Source: an uncultured Gammaproteobacteria bacterium (lineage in GTDB: Bacteria > Patescibacteriota > Microgenomatia > UBA12405). From it: a stretch of DNA of 42,749 nucleotides. The translations under genes were made by a program, and so were the position numbers. Location of the stretch: the NCBI GenBank assembly GCA_964428535.1, contig CAYRYK010000002.1:13469-56217 (forward strand), given 5' to 3'. This document shows, one piece after another, positions 1,893-29,928 of this stretch. Position 1 is the first letter of the stretch; each line of letters begins with the position of its first letter. The notes beneath the pieces were generated by a model. That model did no database searches, was not told the origin of the DNA, and saw nothing but the letters and a program-made list of their open reading frames with translations.

Positions 1893-2198
1893 CAAAAGCC
1901 TTCAAAGAAATTGTTAAGCCGGATTCTGTTTATGTGTCATCCATCTATTCTCTCTACCTGAGACTCTCAAAGGTTAGATATTGACATCTCAACTTGAGAT
2001 TTCCACCAGAAGGTTGCTCGTTTCATCTCGGTCTTCCGCAGCCTTTCGGCGTAGGAGACTTACTCGTCTCTGTAGCATTGCCGTTTGGTTACCCAAACCC
2101 CTACATCTTTAGGTTCTGTACCTTTTGTGGTCCGGACTTTCCTTTCTCCCCGACAAATATCGGGGGAACAGACACTTCAATTTCTCTGAAGGCTAATT
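1893..2198 (-). ncRNA. rnpB: RNase P RNA (bacterial type, reduced size, about 300 nt)
   Basis: The minus strand reads ...GAGAAAGGAAAGTCCGGACC... (CR-I-like GGAAAGUCCGG) and ...ACAGAATCCGGCTTAACAA... (CR-V-like ACAGAAnCCGGCUUA). Terminal P1 pairing AGCCTTCAGAGAAATT / AATTTCTTTGAAGGCT. Locally GC-rich and lacks a credible ORF. Confidence 0.85.
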
Positions 2199-24625: not shown

Positions 24626-25345
24626 ATGAAAGGTATTATTCTTGCCGGTGGCCGTGCCACTCGTCTTCGTCCATTAACTGCCATTACTTCTAAGCAGCTT
24701 CTTCCTGTCTACAATAAACCCATGATTTTTTATCCTATCGAAACTTTAATTAAAGCCGGTATTAAGGATATTTTAATCATTATTGCCCCCGATTATTCTG
24801 GTCATTTTTTAAATCTTTTAGGAGATGGTAAGGAATTCGGTGCCCATTTTAATTATGCCGTTCAAAAAGAACCAAAAGGACTAGCTGATGCCTTCATTAT
24901 TGGTGCCGATTTTATCGGCGACGATAATGTCACCATGATTTTGGGTGACAATATTTTTGAACAAGATTTTTCTTCCGAAATTAAAAATTTCAAATCGGGT
25001 GGTATGGTTTTTGCCAAACAAGTACCCGATCCAGAACGTTTTGGTGTTGTCGAATTCGACCAAAACATGAAAGCTGTTTCTATAGAAGAAAAACCAGCCA
25101 AACCAAAAAGTAATTATGCCGTCGTTGGTCTTTATACTTACGATAATCAAGTCGTTGATATCGCCAAGAATCTTAAGCCATCAGATCGTGGTGAAATCGA
25201 AATCACTGACATTAACCGAACTTATTTAGAAAAAGGTCAATTGCAAGTCAATATTTTTGACTCCCTTTGGGAAGATGCCGGCACTTTCGATAGTCTTTTA
25301 CATGTCAGCAATATCATGGCCGAAAAAGCCAAGCAACAAGGCTAA
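24626..25345 (+). CDS. Sugar-1-phosphate nucleotidyltransferase (short RmlA/glucose-1-phosphate thymidylyltransferase-like)
   Basis: [17 protein letters not shown]...[14 protein letters not shown] motif. Confidence 0.85.
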
Positions 25346-25351
25346 GGTTTT

Positions 25352-26176
25352 ATGAATTTTTCCCAAAATTTCATTAAATCACCTCAGCTTGTTTCTCAGC
25401 TTATTCAATCAAGTCAATTATCACCCGGTGATATCGTTGTCGAAATTGGTCCCGGAAAGGGGATTATTACTCAAAAATTATTAGACTTTGGTTGCCAAGT
25501 TATTGCCATCGAAAAAGATCGTCATTTAATTGCTGAACTTCAGTCTCGATTTTCTCAAAATAAAAACTTTAAATTAATTAATACTGACTTTCTTTTATGG
25601 TCATTACCCAAAACATCTTATAAAATTTTTTCCAACATTCCTTTTTCTATTACGGCTCCTATAATTAATAAAATTCTTAAATCAAACAATAAACCCACCG
25701 AAATGTATTTGATTCTTCAGCAAGAAGCCGCCGAAAAATTTTCTTTGTTTGATGATATTAATAATCAAGACGCCATTTTAGTTGCTCCATTTTATGATAT
25801 TGAAATTTTAGGTGATATAGACAGAACAGCTTTTACTCCAAAACCTCAGGTCAATATTGTTTTTGCCAAATTTGCCCTCTTAAACGAACCTTTAGTTAAT
25901 TTCCCTCATTATCAACAATTCCGTGATTTTATTATTTTTGGTTTTAATCAATGGAAACCCAATATTTTTGAAATTTACAAAAAAATATTTTCTTATGATC
26001 AATTCAAAAAAATTAATCATCAATTAAAAGTAAATTCCCTCAAACCAACTCAATTAAATCTTGATCAATGGCTAAATTTATTTTCTATTTACCAAAAATT
26101 TGTCCCTGATACTAAAAAACGCCTCATCGTCGGATTTGAGAAAAATCACTTATCCCATATTAAATCGTCAAACTAA
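25352..26176 (+). CDS. Erm-family 23S rRNA (adenine-N6)-methyltransferase-like protein
   Basis: Immediate N-terminal SQNFI.S, EIGPGKG SAM motif, YKIFSNIPFSITAPII (compare ErmC YKIFGNIPYNISTDII), F.PKP.VN, and C-terminal KKIFS.DQF...L..DQWLNLFSIY (compare ErmC KKIFTKNQF...FEQFLSLFNSY). Confidence 0.75.
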   Translation: MNFSQNFIKSPQLVSQLIQSSQLSPGDIVVEIGPGKGIITQKLLDFGCQVIAIEKDRHLIAELQSRFSQNKNFKLINTDFLLWSLPKTSYKIFSNIPFSITAPIINKILKSNNKPTEMYLILQQEAAEKFSLFDDINNQDAILVAPFYDIEILGDIDRTAFTPKPQVNIVFAKFALLNEPLVNFPHYQQFRDFIIFGFNQWKPNIFEIYKKIFSYDQFKKINHQLKVNSLKPTQLNLDQWLNLFSIYQKFVPDTKKRLIVGFEKNHLSHIKSSN

Positions 26177-26269
26177 TTTCCCCTATTGAATTAAATTATT
26201 GTTCGATATACACTCCACCTAATATCGAAAAAATATATATAAAAGTAAAAAGCATTTTTATATAAATTG

Positions 26270-27388
26270 TTTTCCTGTACCTGAACAATTAAGAAAGGAA
26301 AGAGAGGTGAATCAGTTTTGTCTCGTGCTCTCGTCGCTCGCCAATGTTTCCAAGCAATGGCCCTGGGTTAAGAGAGGAGGCAATCCGTTGCACTAGTATA
26401 TGCAGCACAACCGACAAACAAGCCTTCGAGTGGAGAACTTTCTCTCTAGAGTATTCGAATCTCGTGCGATAGAAGGCTCCAATTGTGGAGATAATCTTCT
26501 GATCATGCATCAGGTGAGTTTTCGAATAAGCTAGTTTGGGATTGTCTTTGCCATTCGTGTTGCACCTGGGAACTGAGGGAATTCTTCCAAGTCTAATCGC
26601 ACCGCCCTCGCGTTAGGCTAGTGAAGAATATGTGCCCTCTAGACCGATTGTATTATGAAAATACAATCAGAAAGGTTGGTGTTCCGTTGAACTAGTTAGT
26701 CTGCTCCAGACAACATCATGCCGCCATCATCGCTGTTGTGAATCTCGATCCACTGCACACTTAAGCCCTACAAGGCTGAAAGGGATATTCCCATGTGGTA
26801 GTGAAATCGTTTTCAAGAGGCATGATTTGGTAACTTGGTAGCTGCCAGTCTATCGCCTCAAGAACACATCGACATATCCTCAACGCCCTGTCTGTCGTAA
26901 CACACACAACACGCGAGGAGGTATTCTAAAGATGCGTCAACACACCAACACTGGTCCGCCCGTGATGAAAAACACCACGAATTCCGACATGCCGGCCAAG
27001 GTCGCCCACTGAGCTGAGCTCTTCGATGTAGCCCAGCCCTTGGCCTCCAAAAATGCATTTTCGGCCCGGCGCGTCTACACGAGAAGTTCCTTTGGAACAC
27101 CCAAGTCTCGTCTGACTTTCGCCATTTTCCGCAACACGGTGATAAATCCTCCACGGATTGCTCATTCGCCGGGCCGACGGAAAAACTGAATAACTCTGGT
27201 GTCATTCTGACCCAACCATTGGGCCAGGGGAGATCCTGCACACGCTTTGTCGTGTCGCCGGCTACCATTGTCTCTACGCGCGATCGATGTGCGTTGTAAT
27301 CTCTTCCTTTCCCGACTTATCTTTGGCCTAGTGCTGTGTTCATACTCGCATCGTGCGAAACACATCCCTAGGCCTCGTTTTTTTTTCT
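26270..27388 (+). ncRNA. Candidate large (about 1.1 kb) structured noncoding RNA, class unknown (strand tentative)
   Basis: No + strand ORF of 60 aa or more. Abrupt GC enrichment and numerous GC-rich helices, e.g. a perfect 11 bp 27061-27071/27167-27177. Ends in a strong + strand intrinsic terminator. Confidence 0.4.
27325..27386 (+). terminator. Intrinsic terminator (long hairpin plus T9)
   Basis: GGCCTAG(27325-31)...TGTGTT...TCGCA-tcg-TGCGA...AACACA...CTAGGCC(27368-74), followed by tcg and nine T (27378-27386). Confidence 0.65.
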
Positions 27389-27392
27389 TAAA

Positions 27393-27911
27393 CTAAACTT
27401 CCTTAAACGTTTTGATTATCTCGTCTACCTTCGAATCGTAATTTGTATTTATCAAAGTAATATAAAAATTTCCTATTTTCTTTACCGTCACATTTTTATA
27501 AGTACTGTCATATTTTTTCTGATATTCTGACTCGTTATTCCAAACTTCTATTGCCAAATCATACGATTGTCCACCACCATAAATTAACGCCACTGCTTTT
27601 GGCCAACCATACATACTTTCTTTATCGGTTAACACTTTATATTTTTCTGGATAAGAAATTTCAAAACTATATTGTTTGTTAGTATAAGTTTGCCATCCAT
27701 TAGATAAATTTAATGTGGGCGTCGCTGTTTGAATTATTGTTTTTGTTGGTAATATTGTTGGCGATATTGTCTCTGTAACCTTTTGTGGTGCTTCAGTAAT
27801 CAAATCAGTTTTATTATCTTTGCTTTTTTGAGTTCCGTAATAATAAGCAAAGCTTCCACTCACTCCAACCAATAAAACAATCAATACAACTTCAATGAAA
27901 TTATTCTTCAT
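27393..27911 (-). CDS. Hypothetical secreted/membrane-anchored protein (172 aa)
   Basis: N-terminal TM or signal helix, T/P-rich linker and a small globular C-terminus. No family recognised. Confidence 0.55.
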   Translation of the reverse strand: MKNNFIEVVLIVLLVGVSGSFAYYYGTQKSKDNKTDLITEAPQKVTETISPTILPTKTIIQTATPTLNLSNGWQTYTNKQYSFEISYPEKYKVLTDKESMYGWPKAVALIYGGGQSYDLAIEVWNNESEYQKKYDSTYKNVTVKKIGNFYITLINTNYDSKVDEIIKTFKEV

Positions 27912-27925
27912 CTACCAAAATTATA

Positions 27926-28369
27926 CTATTTCTCCCAGCCACTTTCAAAAAACGGTATTTTATCTTGATATTTTTGCCAAGCCTCTTTTATATGCGGCAA
28001 TAAATTTTCTGGCAAATTGTCTATATCAAACCAACTTAAATCATCACATTTATCCGGTTCTCCAATCATTATTTTTCCTTCCCATTTTTCACAAACAAAG
28101 AAAAAATCAGCATATTCTTGATCTGATGATTTTCGGTGAATTGTTATTGCCGGAACCAAATTTTCTTTTCTGACCACAATTTTTGCCTCTTCCATCGCTT
28201 CTCTAATCATTGCTTGTGTTACTGTTTCATTGCCATCCAAATGACCAGCAACTAAACTATATTTTCCATCCATCCAACCAGTATTAAATCTCCTTAATAA
28301 TAAAATCCGATTATCTTTTTTTAAAAACAAATAAACTGCCGATCTTAATTTAAATCTTTCACTTTCCAT
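27926..28369 (-). CDS. NUDIX hydrolase
   Basis: Nudix box GHLDGNETVTQAMIREAMEEAKI (G.5E.7REU.EE.GU). Confidence 0.85.
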   Translation of the reverse strand: MESERFKLRSAVYLFLKKDNRILLLRRFNTGWMDGKYSLVAGHLDGNETVTQAMIREAMEEAKIVVRKENLVPAITIHRKSSDQEYADFFFVCEKWEGKIMIGEPDKCDDLSWFDIDNLPENLLPHIKEAWQKYQDKIPFFESGWEK

Positions 28370-28372
28370 AAT

Positions 28373-28705
28373 TCATTTTGACTTAATGATCTTTTTAGAA
28401 ACTTCACCTACAAAAAGTCTAAAAGCTAGTCTATTTTCTGGCTCATAAATATAAGGAATTCCGACTATTTGACCACAACCAGAACAAATAAAATTAGGAA
28501 TCAACGTTAATGGTTGTTTTTCTAACCCAACATATTTATCTGATTCAAAAATTCTGTCTAAATACATCCTCTTTAATAATCCCGGTCCGTCTTTTTGATA
28601 AAGACACAAATGTTGTCCGCACCTAGCACAAGAAATATCTAATAATCTGGAATATCCACCCCTAGCTTTTTTATACTTATCACTCTTAAATTTAATTTGC
28701 GACAC
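28373..28705 (-). CDS. Hypothetical zinc-ribbon protein (110 aa)
   Basis: Two CxxC pairs (CARCGQ, CSGCGQ). 3-nt gap to the NUDIX gene suggests an operon. Confidence 0.5.
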   Translation of the reverse strand: MSQIKFKSDKYKKARGGYSRLLDISCARCGQHLCLYQKDGPGLLKRMYLDRIFESDKYVGLEKQPLTLIPNFICSGCGQIVGIPYIYEPENRLAFRLFVGEVSKKIIKSK

Positions 28706-28767
28706 AACCTATTTTAGCAGATTTTTTTTTGTTAACCGTTTGGGACGACGTTGGAACTTTTTTAGAT

Positions 28768-29442
28768 TCAATTTAAATATTTTTGAAAAACAGACTTTAA
28801 TTCTTCTGGTTTATATTTACCGGGGTTAAACCTAATTAAAGGAAAATTGTTTCTCTTAAAAATTTCGTCAACAAATTTATCACGTTCTTGCCTATCAATC
28901 CTTTCATGACTGGAATCATCAAGCTCTATAGCAAAAAGAGGAGATTGAGTATTTTTATTAACAACTAAAAAATCTACAGACTTTTGGCTTATTTTTCTAA
29001 ACCACATCACATAATATTTATATAGCTTTTGATATTCAATATCAAAGATCTTACTTAAATTGACCTGTGGATATACAGAATATTTAGGTTCTAATAAAGA
29101 TTTTAAAGTCTCAAACAACAATCTTTCATGAGATGTCATAACGGTTTTTTTAATTTTGTATGGCAGATATTTATATTCATCTTTGCCCTCATTTTTTATT
29201 CTAAAATCTTCAAATTTTTTTAAAAATTCTTCTTCTTTAATTTCTTTTAAGAATTCTACTTCGTTATACTTTTTTTTATCATCATCAAACAATCCATTTT
29301 CCTTAAGTTTTTTTAATTTTTCCAAATATTCTTCTTTAGATTTTTTTAACAATTCAATTTTATTTTTATTAAATCTGTTTACTACAAAAATACAAACAGC
29401 AGCCAAAATCACTAATAATAATTCCATGATTAATCCTATCAT
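28768..29442 (-). CDS. DUF2726-like (restriction-endonuclease-fold) protein with N-terminal TM and K/E-rich coiled coil
   Basis: C-terminal ...ERLLFETL...VYPQVNLSKIF...VDFLVVNK....PLFAIELDDSSH....RQERDKFVDEIF....PLIRF matches the DUF2726 pattern. Confidence 0.6.
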   Translation of the reverse strand: MIGLIMELLLVILAAVCIFVVNRFNKNKIELLKKSKEEYLEKLKKLKENGLFDDDKKKYNEVEFLKEIKEEEFLKKFEDFRIKNEGKDEYKYLPYKIKKTVMTSHERLLFETLKSLLEPKYSVYPQVNLSKIFDIEYQKLYKYYVMWFRKISQKSVDFLVVNKNTQSPLFAIELDDSSHERIDRQERDKFVDEIFKRNNFPLIRFNPGKYKPEELKSVFQKYLN

Positions 29443-29497
29443 TTAAAAACAAGGGGTGTAAAAAACAAATGACCATTTTTGCAATGGTGTCCTTTTT

Positions 29498-29511
29498 GTT
29501 ACCCCGCATGG
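29498..29511 (-). repeat. 14-bp exact duplicate of the tRNA-Gln 3' end (att-like)
   Basis: gttaccccgcatgg occurs at 29498-29511 and at 29857-29870. Confidence 0.85.
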
Positions 29512-29517
29512 TGTCCT

Positions 29518-29817
29518 TCACTTCGTTTCGGAACACCTCAAAATCCTGCGAGCTTCAATATCTTTCGCCAAAACTTCAGAAACTAATCGTTTGTAAGCAA
29601 AAGCTTTTCCTGATCCGCTTTTTAAATAAAGTTCAAAATCTTTTGCTTCCTTTTCGGTATTAAACGCACCATACCAAACCAAATTCCAAGGGGTATGTGG
29701 CTTTGTAGAAAATACTTTACTACTATTATGTAATTTAAATCTATTTTTTAAATCCGACGTGTAACCGTAGTAAAAAATATGAGATTTTGAACTTAATAAA
29801 ATATATGAGTAATACAC
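29518..29817 (-). CDS. Small GIY-YIG nuclease-family protein (99 aa, YhbQ/UPF0213-like)
   Basis: YYSYILLS....FYYGYT.DL..R...HN motifs of the GIY-YIG fold, and ...EKEAKDFELYLKSGSGKAF..KRL. Confidence 0.8.
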   Translation of the reverse strand: MYYSYILLSSKSHIFYYGYTSDLKNRFKLHNSSKVFSTKPHTPWNLVWYGAFNTEKEAKDFELYLKSGSGKAFAYKRLVSEVLAKDIEARRILRCSETK

Positions 29818-29857
29818 ACTTCAGTATAATCATTCTGAAGCTTTAGCGAAAGATGAG

Positions 29858-29928
29858 TTACCCCGCATGGATTCGAACCACAATTCTTGCGTTCAGAGCG
29901 CAATGTCCTACCATTAGACGACGGGGTA
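29858..29928 (-). tRNA. tRNA-Gln (anticodon CUG), CCA not encoded
   Basis: Manual cloverleaf: acceptor UACCCCG/CGGGGUA, D arm GUC...GAC, anticodon stem UUGCG/CGCAA with loop CUCUGAA, T arm UGUGG-UUCGAAU-CCAUG, discriminator A. Confidence 0.9.

Follow-up and report, generated by a model that had tools for sequence, protein, structure and literature searches.

A GC-rich, ORF-free island next to a tRNA-Gln hot spot in a CPR bacterium as a candidate for a lineage-restricted non-coding RNA

Downstream of an RrnaAD/Erm-like gene, an AT-rich candidate-phyla-radiation (CPR) bacterium carries a GC-rich island of about 1.2 kb, which we judge, with modest confidence, to be probably a plus-strand transcription unit for a non-coding RNA of an unrecognised, lineage-restricted family. 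Its transcription, its strand and the action of its product as an RNA are what we infer from sequence. The first-pass annotation had read the region as a candidate large structured RNA and compared it with large ornate ones; this reading is only partly supported by the results below. All positions are those of the window, the whole 42.7 kb stretch of DNA that was analysed.

26177–27392, plus strand: the whole element, a GC-rich and ORF-free island flanked by the stop of the RrnaAD/Erm-like gene (26176) and that of a convergent 172-aa gene (27393).

The plus strand of this interval contains no ORF of at least 60 aa and its minus strand only overlapping ORFs of 48–136 aa, while the GC content of 0.44–0.55, against 0.25–0.31 in the flanks, represents the largest GC excursion in the window; the ORF list and the GC profile thereby confirmed the missing plus-strand ORFs and the sharp GC jump noticed at first pass. 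The island junctions were 100% identical in the Logan assemblies of five different runs. Because these five independent assemblies agree and related genomes are syntenic, the island is a genuine sequence, and the suspicion of a chimeric assembly could be dropped. The neighbouring genes encode RrnaAD, the 172-aa orphan, NUDIX, a 110-aa orphan, DUF2726 and GIY-YIG proteins. The island adjoins a tRNA-Gln-linked variable region (the tRNA-Gln cassette hot spot), at whose edge it had been placed before, and a relative with the order RrnaAD, element, tRNA (L064) supports this location. ARAGORN detected tRNA-Gln only; no tRNA-derived att repeat was found at the island border, the sole tRNA 3′-end repeat bracketing the GIY-YIG gene.

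We searched the island against all 4227 Rfam 15 families using cmscan, and none matched it at the gathering score, which agrees with the earlier statement that no recognised RNA class is present. At E ≤ 10 with lax filters, the interval 26100–27500 gave only three matches, at chance level, which all fell outside the island, in the AT-rich left flank, and nine related loci gave no Rfam match at E ≤ 1. GOLLD, ROOL, OLE, HEARO/omega RNA, raiA, group I/II introns, RNase P, tmRNA, SRP, 6S and rRNA were rejected for lack of a covariance-model match. A guide or retroelement RNA (IscB/TnpB omega RNA, retron msr-msd, DGR template or group II intron) was rejected because no such gene is adjacent; the claim that no RT, IscB, TnpB or recombinase gene lies next to the island was correct for the neighbour genes, none of which co-varies with the presence of the island across relatives. 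A MITE- or IS-like mobile element was rejected as well, since the window holds no second copy and every homolog sits at the same locus; no copies in other contexts were found in the viral set, and the purine/pyrimidine inverted tracts described below are set back from the conserved ends by about 115 and 70 nt and are not terminal. A CsrB-like GGA sponge was rejected, as neither GGA nor AGGA is enriched. Phage and plasmid DNA gave no blastn match at word size 11, viral contigs scanned with three island motifs gave chance seed matches only (none confirmed by nhmmer), and an exact 20-mer scan of the JGI metagenomes returned nothing; the genome-representative and JGI metagenome sets were each probed only with sequences from 26861–27316. 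A literature search on structured RNAs in CPR turned up nothing relevant.

Three diverged homologs (L013, L015 and L052) were found in related Shapirobacteria-like genomes at the same locus, between the Erm/KsgA-like gene and the tRNA-Gln cassette hot spot, and the L015 sequence recurs in nine more loci. The family thus has four known distinct members, all from one narrow clade and about 0.5–1.2 kb long from the 5′ tract to the U-run. The element is dispensable, because close relatives carry a 96-aa ORF (L007 and L014), an HD-domain gene (L051) or nothing (L053 and L054) in its place. More distant relatives have unrelated ORF-free, GC-enriched spacers at this position; the L045/L017, L018-type and L023 elements could not be linked significantly to the window-type family, either with nhmmer profiles or with a covariance model built from the 11-bp domain described below. 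Motif resemblances to same-locus elements, seen by eye and unproven, are TTCGCCGGCGATCG, CTTCCTTTCC..TGACTT and, in L045, a 9-bp TCGTCGGCG/CGCCGGCGA helix.

Four-fold degenerate sites of four flanking genes are 52–65% identical between the window and L013, but the island shows invariant runs of 25, 24, 23, 19, 19, 16, 15 and 15 nt in the same comparison, and its 40-nt windows reach 85–97% identity. These runs approach the length of those in the flanking genes; other island segments are unalignable. Given 15–25-nt invariant runs at this level of neutral-site identity, parts of the island are, by sequence comparison, under block-wise purifying selection. The GC-rich middle gains or loses modules of 100–450 nt between species whose flanking proteins are 80–90% identical, and no internal element except CGCCGGGCCGA is common to all four members. 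A 150-bp recombination patch lies directly left of the island in L003, and such fine-scale recombination could contribute to the block-wise identity pattern.

These findings bear on the explanation that there is no functional RNA here, which we consider unlikely. The island would then be a relic of DNA that was acquired from elsewhere or duplicated, or else a buffer at the level of DNA, placed at a convergent junction by an integration hot spot; selection would act only on RrnaAD-proximal regulatory DNA and a shared terminator, and the internal blocks would reflect mosaic recombination between relatives that occur together. This would fit the composition, foreign to the genome, the extreme loss of modules between species, the replacement or absence of the element in close relatives, the patch in L003 and the GC-enriched spacers of distant relatives that neither nhmmer nor the covariance model could link. 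However, no donor sequence or protein homolog was found in the databases searched, and the aligned island parts are 71–79% identical, compared with 85% for the flanking genes, which argues against recent transfer, yet contain the invariant runs. Moreover, three or four lineages share the same conserved blocks, self-complementarity exceeds that of shuffled sequences, and the complementarity of the end tracts is maintained despite their differences. Decayed foreign DNA, the less favoured option at first pass, is thus disfavoured, the blocks being conserved far above the neutral level.

The preferred reading, a non-coding RNA from the plus strand, draws first on the 5′ end, which comprises the following features.

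26186–26214, plus strand: promoter-like box (TTGAAT, 17 nt, TACACT), conserved in all four members (alignment, by eye).
26275–26290, plus strand: conserved 5′ block CTGTACCTGAACAATT, a 16-nt run invariant between the window and L013; its first 15 nt also occur in L015, and it is absent from L052.
26291–26310, plus strand: purine-rich, Shine-Dalgarno (SD)-like tract AAGAAAGGAAAGAGAGGTGA, containing a 23-nt invariant run; 5′ strand of the closing helix.
26318–26371, plus strand: short ORF with a TTG start, 17 codons and a TAA stop, behind the SD-like tract.
26372–26397, plus strand: second SD-like box GAGAGGAGG and motif CCGTTGCACTAG (mini-ORF TTG-CAC-TAG), the left copy of a 14-nt direct repeat.

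The TTGAAT hexamer and the spacing are invariant, and the −10 hexamer reads TACACT in the window and L015, TAAACT in L013 and TACTAT in L052; transcription would start near 26221. The AT-rich promoter-like 5′ end proposed at first pass is therefore present, its box being conserved in all homologs. A consensus scanner called neither promoter nor terminator, as its 9-of-12 promoter rule, which the box just misses, and its 8-nt loop limit exclude both sites. The motif CCRTTGNACTAR is confined to the island homologs among 64 loci.

The 3′ end consists of two features.

27298–27321, plus strand: pyrimidine-rich, anti-SD-like tract TCTCTTCCTTTCC + CGACTTATC; it supplies the 3′ side of the closing helix and lies some 70 nt before the 3′ end.
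27325–27386, plus strand: intrinsic-terminator-like long hairpin followed by T9, an inverted repeat with arms 27325–27340 / 27359–27374 and apical TCGCA-NNN-TGCGA.

Sequence comparison of the four members revealed conserved end modules and a conserved complementarity of two tracts. At the 3′ tract, CTTCCTTTCC[C/T]GACTTA is near-invariant in all four, with one change in L015 (CTTTCTTTCC). In every member this pyrimidine tract is the best RNAduplex partner of the purine tract in the whole transcript (z −3.2 to −4.1). The purine tract pairs solely with it in the minimum free energy (MFE) folds of L013, L015 and L052; in the window's fold, the 5′ half of the purine tract pairs with the pyrimidine tract and the 3′ half pairs at transcript position ~683. 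The closing helix was recovered, for the window in part, in bodies whose lengths vary between 507 and 1109 nt, and the complementarity persists although both tracts differ between genomes; as a low-complexity purine/pyrimidine pairing, such a helix can arise easily. An end-closing pairing of 26294–26304 with 27301–27310 had been listed as a possibility, and it is now the best-supported long-range feature, recovered independently in all four homologs. By our own comparison, the anti-SD-like strand agrees with the canonical 3′ tail of 16S rRNA at 11 of 14 positions.

The terminator hairpin is likewise conserved in all four members and the long T-run in three, L015 having T4, so that the earlier claim of a plus-strand terminator stands for the hairpin throughout and for the long T-run in those three. 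Its stem shows G-U and two-sided changes, e.g., from A-T/G-C in the window to G-C/A-T in L015 (by eye), with an RNAalifold z of −2.8 and a 200-nt MFE z of −5.2. The T-run follows the hairpin on the plus strand only, and the G-U pairs of the terminator stem and of the GTTCY hairpin become A-C mismatches if the minus strand is read (by eye).

The same end elements can be arranged into another explanation, namely that the transcript serves as an mRNA, encoding one or several very short ORFs under hok-like fold-back gating, in which the 3′ tract masks the 5′ SD until processing or unfolding and the body serves as a long structured UTR; we regard this as improbable. A strong SD (GAGAGGTGA) stands 10 nt upstream of the TTG in the window and L013, and GAGGT stands 9 nt upstream of the TTG in L015. 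The ORFs that follow (17 codons in the window, 19 at the same place in L013 and L015) all end at one alignment column, each with a stop codon of its own (TAA, TAG or TGA). A second SD and a start-codon-stop mini-ORF lie downstream, the consensus fold pairs the start region of the first ORF with the GAGAGG of the second SD in an attenuator-cascade-like manner (by eye), and in all four members the SD is sequestered by the 3′ tract just upstream of the terminator. Furthermore, the post-SD ORF ends in Pro-Pro-stop in all four positionally equivalent elements of L018, L021, L063 and L064 (by eye). However, the peptide is not conserved, the conserved nucleotides lying in different frames (by eye), as CCTCGCGTCCGAYCGCGC does in L013 and L015; in L052 no start codon is suitably spaced from the purine tract; and the peptides are neither hydrophobic nor toxin-like. 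In addition, strongly conserved blocks 400–900 nt past the ORF are not explained by a simple UTR, and there is no downstream plus-strand gene to regulate. A hok-like small, hydrophobic, conserved toxin was rejected, since the peptides MSRALVARQCFQAMALG, MSRILASDRANRYYRGEST and MFCNPRVRSRYYHYIAETT are unconserved and not membrane-like and L052 has none.

Between the two ends lies the body of the candidate non-coding RNA, with the following features.

26398–26682, plus strand: dispensable module, present in the window and L015 and absent from L013, bounded by direct repeats TCCGTTGCACTAGT and TCCGTTGAACTAGT.
26703–26746, plus strand: conserved block GCTCCAGACAACATCATGCCGCCA...GCTGTTGTGAATCTC, in which 24 and 15 nt in a row are invariant between the window and L013; ACAACA/TGTTGT may form a hairpin here.
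27060–27177, plus strand: 11-bp helix domain TCGGCCCGGCG / CGCCGGGCCGA, a perfect inverted repeat with arms 27061–27071 / 27167–27177.
27202–27226, plus strand: conserved block TCATTCTGACCCAACCATTGGGCCA with the hairpin CCCAA-CCA-TTGGG inside; a 25-nt run invariant between the window and L013.

The block at 26703–26746 is absent in L015 and L052, and that at 27202–27226 has one change in L015 and is absent in L052. The 11-bp domain encloses the hairpins CGAGA/TCTCG, GTTCC/GGAAC and AATCC/GGATT; both arms of its helix are invariant in the window, L013 and L052, and the 3′ arm is invariant in all four members, the 5′ arm being deleted in L015. RNAalifold gave this domain a structure conservation index (SCI) of 0.65 and a z-score of −4.8 against column shuffles. 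With 3–4 sequences, its covariation term was close to zero (+0.01), and two-sided changes occur in 2 of 30 pairs. All pairings that the first-pass annotation had listed exist, including the 8-bp GGCCAAGG/CCTTGGCC pair and the hairpin near 26646–26668, and the 11-bp domain and the terminator are structurally conserved, but most of the others are not: the segments with the 8-bp pair and the 26646–26668 hairpin are absent or unalignable in the homologs, and about 4 bp of AGCCTTC/GAAGGCT are left in L015 (by eye).

The number of perfect helices within 150 nt was compared with 300 dinucleotide shuffles, with the following results.

At least 11 bp: 1 observed, shuffle mean 0.03; reached by 8 of 300 shuffles.
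At least 8 bp: 5 observed, shuffle mean 1.7; reached by 7 of 300 shuffles.
At least 7 bp: 10 observed, shuffle mean 6.9; reached by 47 of 300 shuffles, which is not unusual.

Over 1000 nt, the MFE z-score was −3.9 for the plus strand and −4.5 for the minus strand (20 shuffles each), and folding energy does not separate the two. Local 200-nt windows averaged z of about −1.3 (plus) and −1.7 (minus), the plus strand being strong only at 27200–27390. Among the conserved-structure z-scores, only those of the 11-bp domain and the terminator given above were significant; those of the 3′ module (−1.4) and the 5′ module (−0.2) were not.

The coding capacity of the island was also examined. Whichever single stop codon is reassigned, each of the six frames still contains stops, and an alternative genetic code (e.g., UGA or UAG reassigned) was rejected, as no frame opens. 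Indels are not multiples of three, mismatches lack codon (three-base) periodicity, and the minus-strand ORFs of the four genomes run through the invariant CGCCGGGCCGA in three different frames (by eye). None of the ten longest stop-to-stop frames (56–152 aa) and none of the nine called ORFs (42–136 aa) matched Pfam or NCBIfam at E ≤ 1. The largest open frame (136/152 aa) retrieved only itself among 5.8 billion proteins, and itself plus one spurious repeat match among 1.84 billion representatives. A protein gene or pseudogene was therefore rejected, with no family match, no homolog of this frame and no three-base periodicity; by these sequence criteria the island is non-coding.

It is also very unlikely, in our estimation, that the minus strand is the functional one, whether as a 3′ UTR extension of the 172-aa gene (window and L015) or the 110-aa gene (L013), or through small Cys/Arg/Trp-rich proteins. 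The known right-hand neighbour is co-directional with that strand, being a protein gene in the window, L013, L015 and L052, and so is that of related element types, a gene in L045 and the tRNA itself in L064. An ORF starts at the same column with ATG in the window, TTG in L013 and GTG in L052 (by eye) and shares the N-terminus CFA(R/Q)C(E/G)Y(E/K)HS(T/P)RP, some of the changes in it being synonymous; three genomes keep LAQWLGQND in frame, stops number 9–15 per frame versus 19 predicted by composition, and this strand folds slightly better. On the contrary, the genomes fall out of a common frame after about 14 codons, in L015 the ORF has only 10–16 codons, and the three frames of CGCCGGGCCGA, the missing periodicity in the relevant blocks and the lack of a homolog of the 136/152-aa frame weigh against proteins. 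The conserved N-terminus can be attributed to its coincidence with the terminator hairpin, and the orientation of the T-run and of the promoter box fits the plus strand.

For the plus-strand non-coding RNA that we favour, the following course can be envisaged. Transcription would start at the sigma-70-like promoter just past the Erm/KsgA-like gene and end at the long hairpin with its U-run. The 5′ SD-like and 3′ anti-SD-like tracts would then pair and clamp the GC-rich body into a closed, panhandle-like fold. Within the body would lie some sequence blocks under selection together with a single conserved domain of several hairpins, which the 11-bp helix closes; short direct repeats would mediate the gain and loss of whole modules between species. 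Our best guess, a speculative one, is that the masked SD-like 5′ end belongs to a structured ribosome- or protein-binding RNA, access to which may be set by the 5′–3′ clamp. A broader proposal, put forward tentatively and in our view rather doubtful, is a new class of large (~0.5–1.2 kb), modular non-coding RNAs of Shapirobacteria-type CPR, with an SD/anti-SD clamp around a fast-evolving body that might engage ribosomes or another RNA-binding partner; the L045/L017, L018/L021/L063/L064 and L023 types would be its diverged relatives.

CPR bacteria (Patescibacteria) have tiny genomes with little non-coding DNA, so a region of 1.2 kb that lacks coding capacity and is under block-wise selection comes at a cost and presumably serves a purpose. 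As a functional RNA, it would be among the very few large non-coding RNAs known from uncultivated CPR, and the module turnover beside a tRNA hot spot would offer a tractable case of fast non-coding RNA evolution; this turnover might be linked to mobile-element conflict or ribosome interaction. The comparative set (four members plus three positionally equivalent element types) makes the island testable with metatranscriptomes.

Three known systems can be compared with the island. Like erm-type leader-peptide attenuators, it has an ORF of 17–19 codons with an SD, followed by a second SD able to pair upstream, and it adjoins an Erm-like methyltransferase gene; unlike them, it lies downstream of the methyltransferase gene, no plus-strand gene follows, and the leader peptide is unconserved. 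The hok/sok and AapA1/IsoA1 systems comprise type I toxin mRNAs with 5′–3′ fold-back inhibition. In all four island members, the SD-containing 5′ end is similarly predicted to pair with a tract just upstream of the terminator, which would mask the SD, and in the window, L013 and L015 a short ORF follows the SD; in contrast, the island RNA would be 2–3 times longer, no antisense RNA gene is identifiable, and the selected blocks lie far from the ORF. A fold-back-gated micro-ORF transcript, if that is what it is, would extend hok-like RNA logic to CPR. Finally, OLE, GOLLD and ROOL are large bacterial non-coding RNAs, unknown or only recently emerging in function, that came to notice as long stretches between genes, GC-rich and free of ORFs, in AT-rich genomes. 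The island differs from these in matching no Rfam model, in being confined to a few species of one CPR clade instead of whole orders, and in a modular body that is unstable between close relatives and shows no covariation-supported multi-helix architecture; the comparison drawn at first pass is one of discovery signature and not of demonstrated ornate structure. What the island shares with them is a length of about 1 kb, freedom from ORFs, a GC content clearly higher than the genome average, promoter-like and terminator-like ends of its own, conserved blocks and a tRNA-linked accessory neighbourhood.

The plus strand contains no ORF of at least 60 aa between the stop codon of the RrnaAD/Erm-like gene (26176) and that of the convergent 172-aa gene (27393), as the first-pass annotation had claimed, and the minus strand of this island carries solely overlapping ORFs of 48-136 aa. 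The sharp GC rise that it described was also borne out (0.44-0.55 in the island versus 0.25-0.31 in the flanks), being the greatest excursion anywhere in the window. The possibility of a chimeric assembly was checked as well: the island junctions are identical in Logan assemblies of five different runs, and the island is therefore not an assembly artefact. It is real, unclassified, narrowly distributed, and dispensable in close relatives.

As the first-pass annotation had proposed, the island was searched against Rfam 15 (4227 models), and no match was found inside it at gathering thresholds. At E ≤ 10 over 26100-27500, three chance-level matches appeared, all in the AT-rich left flank and none in the island; nine related loci gave no match at E ≤ 1. 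These searches ruled out a known RNA family. ARAGORN found nothing but a tRNA-Gln at 29857-29928, and phage or plasmid DNA was ruled out by blastn of the island, which gave no match. Neither the ten longest frames between stops (56-152 aa) nor the nine called ORFs (42-136 aa) matched Pfam or NCBIfam at E ≤ 1. The 136-aa ORF matched itself alone among 5.8 billion proteins, and the 152-aa open frame retrieved itself and one spurious tandem-repeat match from 1.84 billion representatives (exhaustive HMMER). A protein gene was ruled out on these grounds, as was a recoded gene, since any single stop-codon reassignment leaves every frame closed.

Where named, proteins of the flanking gene family bear the name Candidatus Shapirobacteria (CPR/Microgenomates). 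The island is present at the same place in three relatives, L013, L015, and L052, with elements of 877, 789, and 634 nt and RrnaAD protein identities to the window of 89.5%, 84%, and 80%, respectively; the L015 element is identical in nine other contigs. Loci L007, L008, and L014, from a syntenic genome with about 82-86% DNA identity, have no island, which is replaced by a 96-aa ORF in the ~400-bp interval from the RrnaAD gene to the 172-aa homolog. In more distant relatives, with RrnaAD identities of 72-77%, this slot is filled by other GC-enriched stretches, 480-650 nt long and lacking ORFs (L045-50 with L017; L018/L021/L063/L064; L023), to which nhmmer profiles and a covariance model gave the window-type family no significant link. 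An HD-domain gene takes the place of the element in L051, and the slot is empty in L053 and L054. The L013 MAG is titled "uncultured Gammaproteobacteria bacterium"; its locus, at 26-40% GC apart from the island, shares synteny with the CPR window, and this label or the binning therefore looks wrong. Elsewhere in the window, an RNase P RNA (1906-2185, minus strand) best fits the archaeal model RF00373 at full length (109 bits versus a gathering threshold of 84), although the genome is bacterial, with TrmD, RlmN, and Dus in syntenic relatives and flanking homologs named Candidatus Shapirobacteria.

At every locus with a sufficiently long contig, a minus-strand tRNA (in the window, tRNA-Gln) is found further to the right, and the gene order in L064 is RrnaAD, element, tRNA, and nothing else. 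Thus, the element sits at the inner border of a cassette hot spot linked to a tRNA, in line with the earlier placement at the edge of a tRNA-Gln-linked accessory region. From the island to tRNA-Gln (27393-29928) and at the related loci, gene content differs among relatives, in which a 172-aa orphan, NUDIX, 110-aa orphan, DUF2726, GIY-YIG, SNase, HD-domain, and 96-aa genes are variously present or absent. A 14-nt repeat of the tRNA-Gln 3' terminus (29498-29511) brackets the GIY-YIG gene, and a partial second copy of the tRNA is present in L007. Locus L003, from the same population but another run, is distinguished from the window by 24 substitutions, all of them confined to 150 bp (25996-26146) in the 3'-terminal part of the RrnaAD gene, with the island directly to the right; the allele of L007/L014, which lack the island, is the one most similar (90.6%) to this recombination patch.

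In the comparison of the window with L013, identity at four-fold degenerate sites is only 52-65% in four flanking genes, yet the island holds invariant runs of 25, 24, 23, 19, 19, 16, 15, and 15 nt, approaching the length of those in neighbouring genes. Some 40-nt windows in it reach 85-97% identity, and these conserved parts alternate with unalignable stretches. Because the aligned island parts are 71-79% identical versus 85% for genes, the conserved blocks are not the trace of a recent transfer. Four observations speak against coding: indels of 1, 2, 4, 5, and 7 nt occur often, no codon periodicity is seen among mismatches in ungapped blocks, the minus-strand ORFs change frame from genome to genome, and these ORFs use three different frames to read the invariant CGCCGGGCCGA. 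An alignment of the four members (window, L013, L015, and L052) revealed their common anatomy.

Anatomy common to the four members (window coordinates)
26186-26214, plus strand: promoter-like box (TTGAAT, 17 nt, TA.A.T) immediately past the RrnaAD stop
Conserved 5' block: CTGTACCTGAACAATT, first 15 nt also kept in L015; absent in L052
26291-26310, plus strand: purine-rich, Shine-Dalgarno (SD)-like tract
Between the purine tract and CGCCGGGCCGA: variable GC-rich body
Right of the variable body, left of the pyrimidine tract: invariant CGCCGGGCCGA
27298-27321, plus strand: pyrimidine tract and CGACTTA
Plus strand: terminator-like long hairpin, apical TCGCA-NNN-TGCGA, then T8-9 (T4 in L015)

L013 lacks ~26398-26682, a segment bounded by the direct repeat TCCGTTG[C/A]ACTAGT; roughly 26710-27140 is missing from L015, and with it the 5' arm of the 11-bp helix; and L052 lacks most internal blocks. 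The element is defined by features that were tested: purifying selection acting block by block, conserved promoter-/terminator-like ends, and a conserved 5'-3' purine/pyrimidine clamp round a modular GC-rich body. The island is most likely a lineage-restricted, fast-evolving non-coding RNA gene of an unrecognised family on the plus strand, a reading that we hold with moderate confidence; that it is instead a remnant or buffer moulded by recombination, with no role as RNA, seems improbable. Folding energy does not discriminate between the strands; the plus strand is favoured by the promoter box, by the T-run, and by several G-U pairs. A minus-strand function is a quite unlikely reading.

Helix rarity was scored against 300 dinucleotide shuffles for perfect helices within 150 nt. 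One helix of at least 11 bp was observed (0.03 expected; reached by 8/300 shuffles) and five of at least 8 bp (1.7 expected; 7/300), while the ten of at least 7 bp (6.9 expected; 47/300) are not unusual. The 1000-nt MFE was more stable than that of shuffles on both strands (z −3.9 plus, −4.5 minus), but 200-nt local windows gave a mean z of only about −1.3 (plus) and −1.7 (minus), and plus-strand local folding is strong at 27200-27390 only. Inside the NTP_transferase gene (~24900-25100), a 200-nt fold with z of about −5 on both strands matches the island terminator in strength. When transcripts of 507-1109 nt were folded independently (MFE), pairing of the purine tract with the pyrimidine tract was complete in L013, L015, and L052 and partial in the window, in which the 3' half of the purine tract pairs elsewhere. 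The pyrimidine tract is also the best duplex partner of the purine tract transcript-wide in all four members (z −3.2 to −4.1), which together with the folds confirms the end-closing pairing tentatively offered before. RNAalifold z values versus column shuffles were −4.8 for the 11-bp helix domain (27060-27177; SCI 0.65), −2.8 for the terminator, −1.4 for the 3' module, and −0.2 for the 5' module. The covariation term of the 11-bp domain is +0.01, both arms being invariant in three sequences; the terminator stem shows, by eye, G-U and two-sided changes (e.g., A-T/G-C in the window to G-C/A-T in L015). All helices listed in the first-pass annotation are present in the window at the coordinates it gave, but a "helix-dense ornate RNA" is not demonstrated, because those beyond the clamp, one conserved domain, and the terminator, which are demonstrated, are absent or unconserved in homologs.

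The SD-like tract is followed in the window, L013, and L015 by an ORF of 17-19 codons that starts with TTG and ends at one shared alignment column (TAA, TAG, TGA); downstream are another SD-like box and a mini-ORF made up of a start, one codon, and a stop. This arrangement would suit a micro-ORF mRNA with fold-back control, which likens the island RNA to the fold-back-gated hok mRNA; however, the peptide is not conserved, L052 lacks the ORF, and no plus-strand gene follows the island as a possible regulatory target, and we regard this reading as unlikely. A second ORF-free element family occupies the same slot in L018 (1910-2402), L021 (4326-4870), L063 (3829-4311), and L064 (2001-2560). Its short ORF after an SD-like tract has a Pro-Pro-stop end (CCA CCY TAR) in 4/4, and of the nine codons that differ between L021 and L064, five are changed synonymously, which makes a small arrest-type peptide possible. 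Two-sided changes can be seen by eye in the 3' hairpin of this family (GGTTGGGGT/ACCCCAACC versus AATTGGGGTT/AACCCCAATT).

For the island itself, we favour a non-coding RNA gene, in which the SD-like 5' end of a structured RNA would be masked by the 5'-3' clamp; the clamped RNA may bind ribosomes or protein. Its suggested likeness to the ornate RNAs OLE, GOLLD, and ROOL is supported in part, and only in part.
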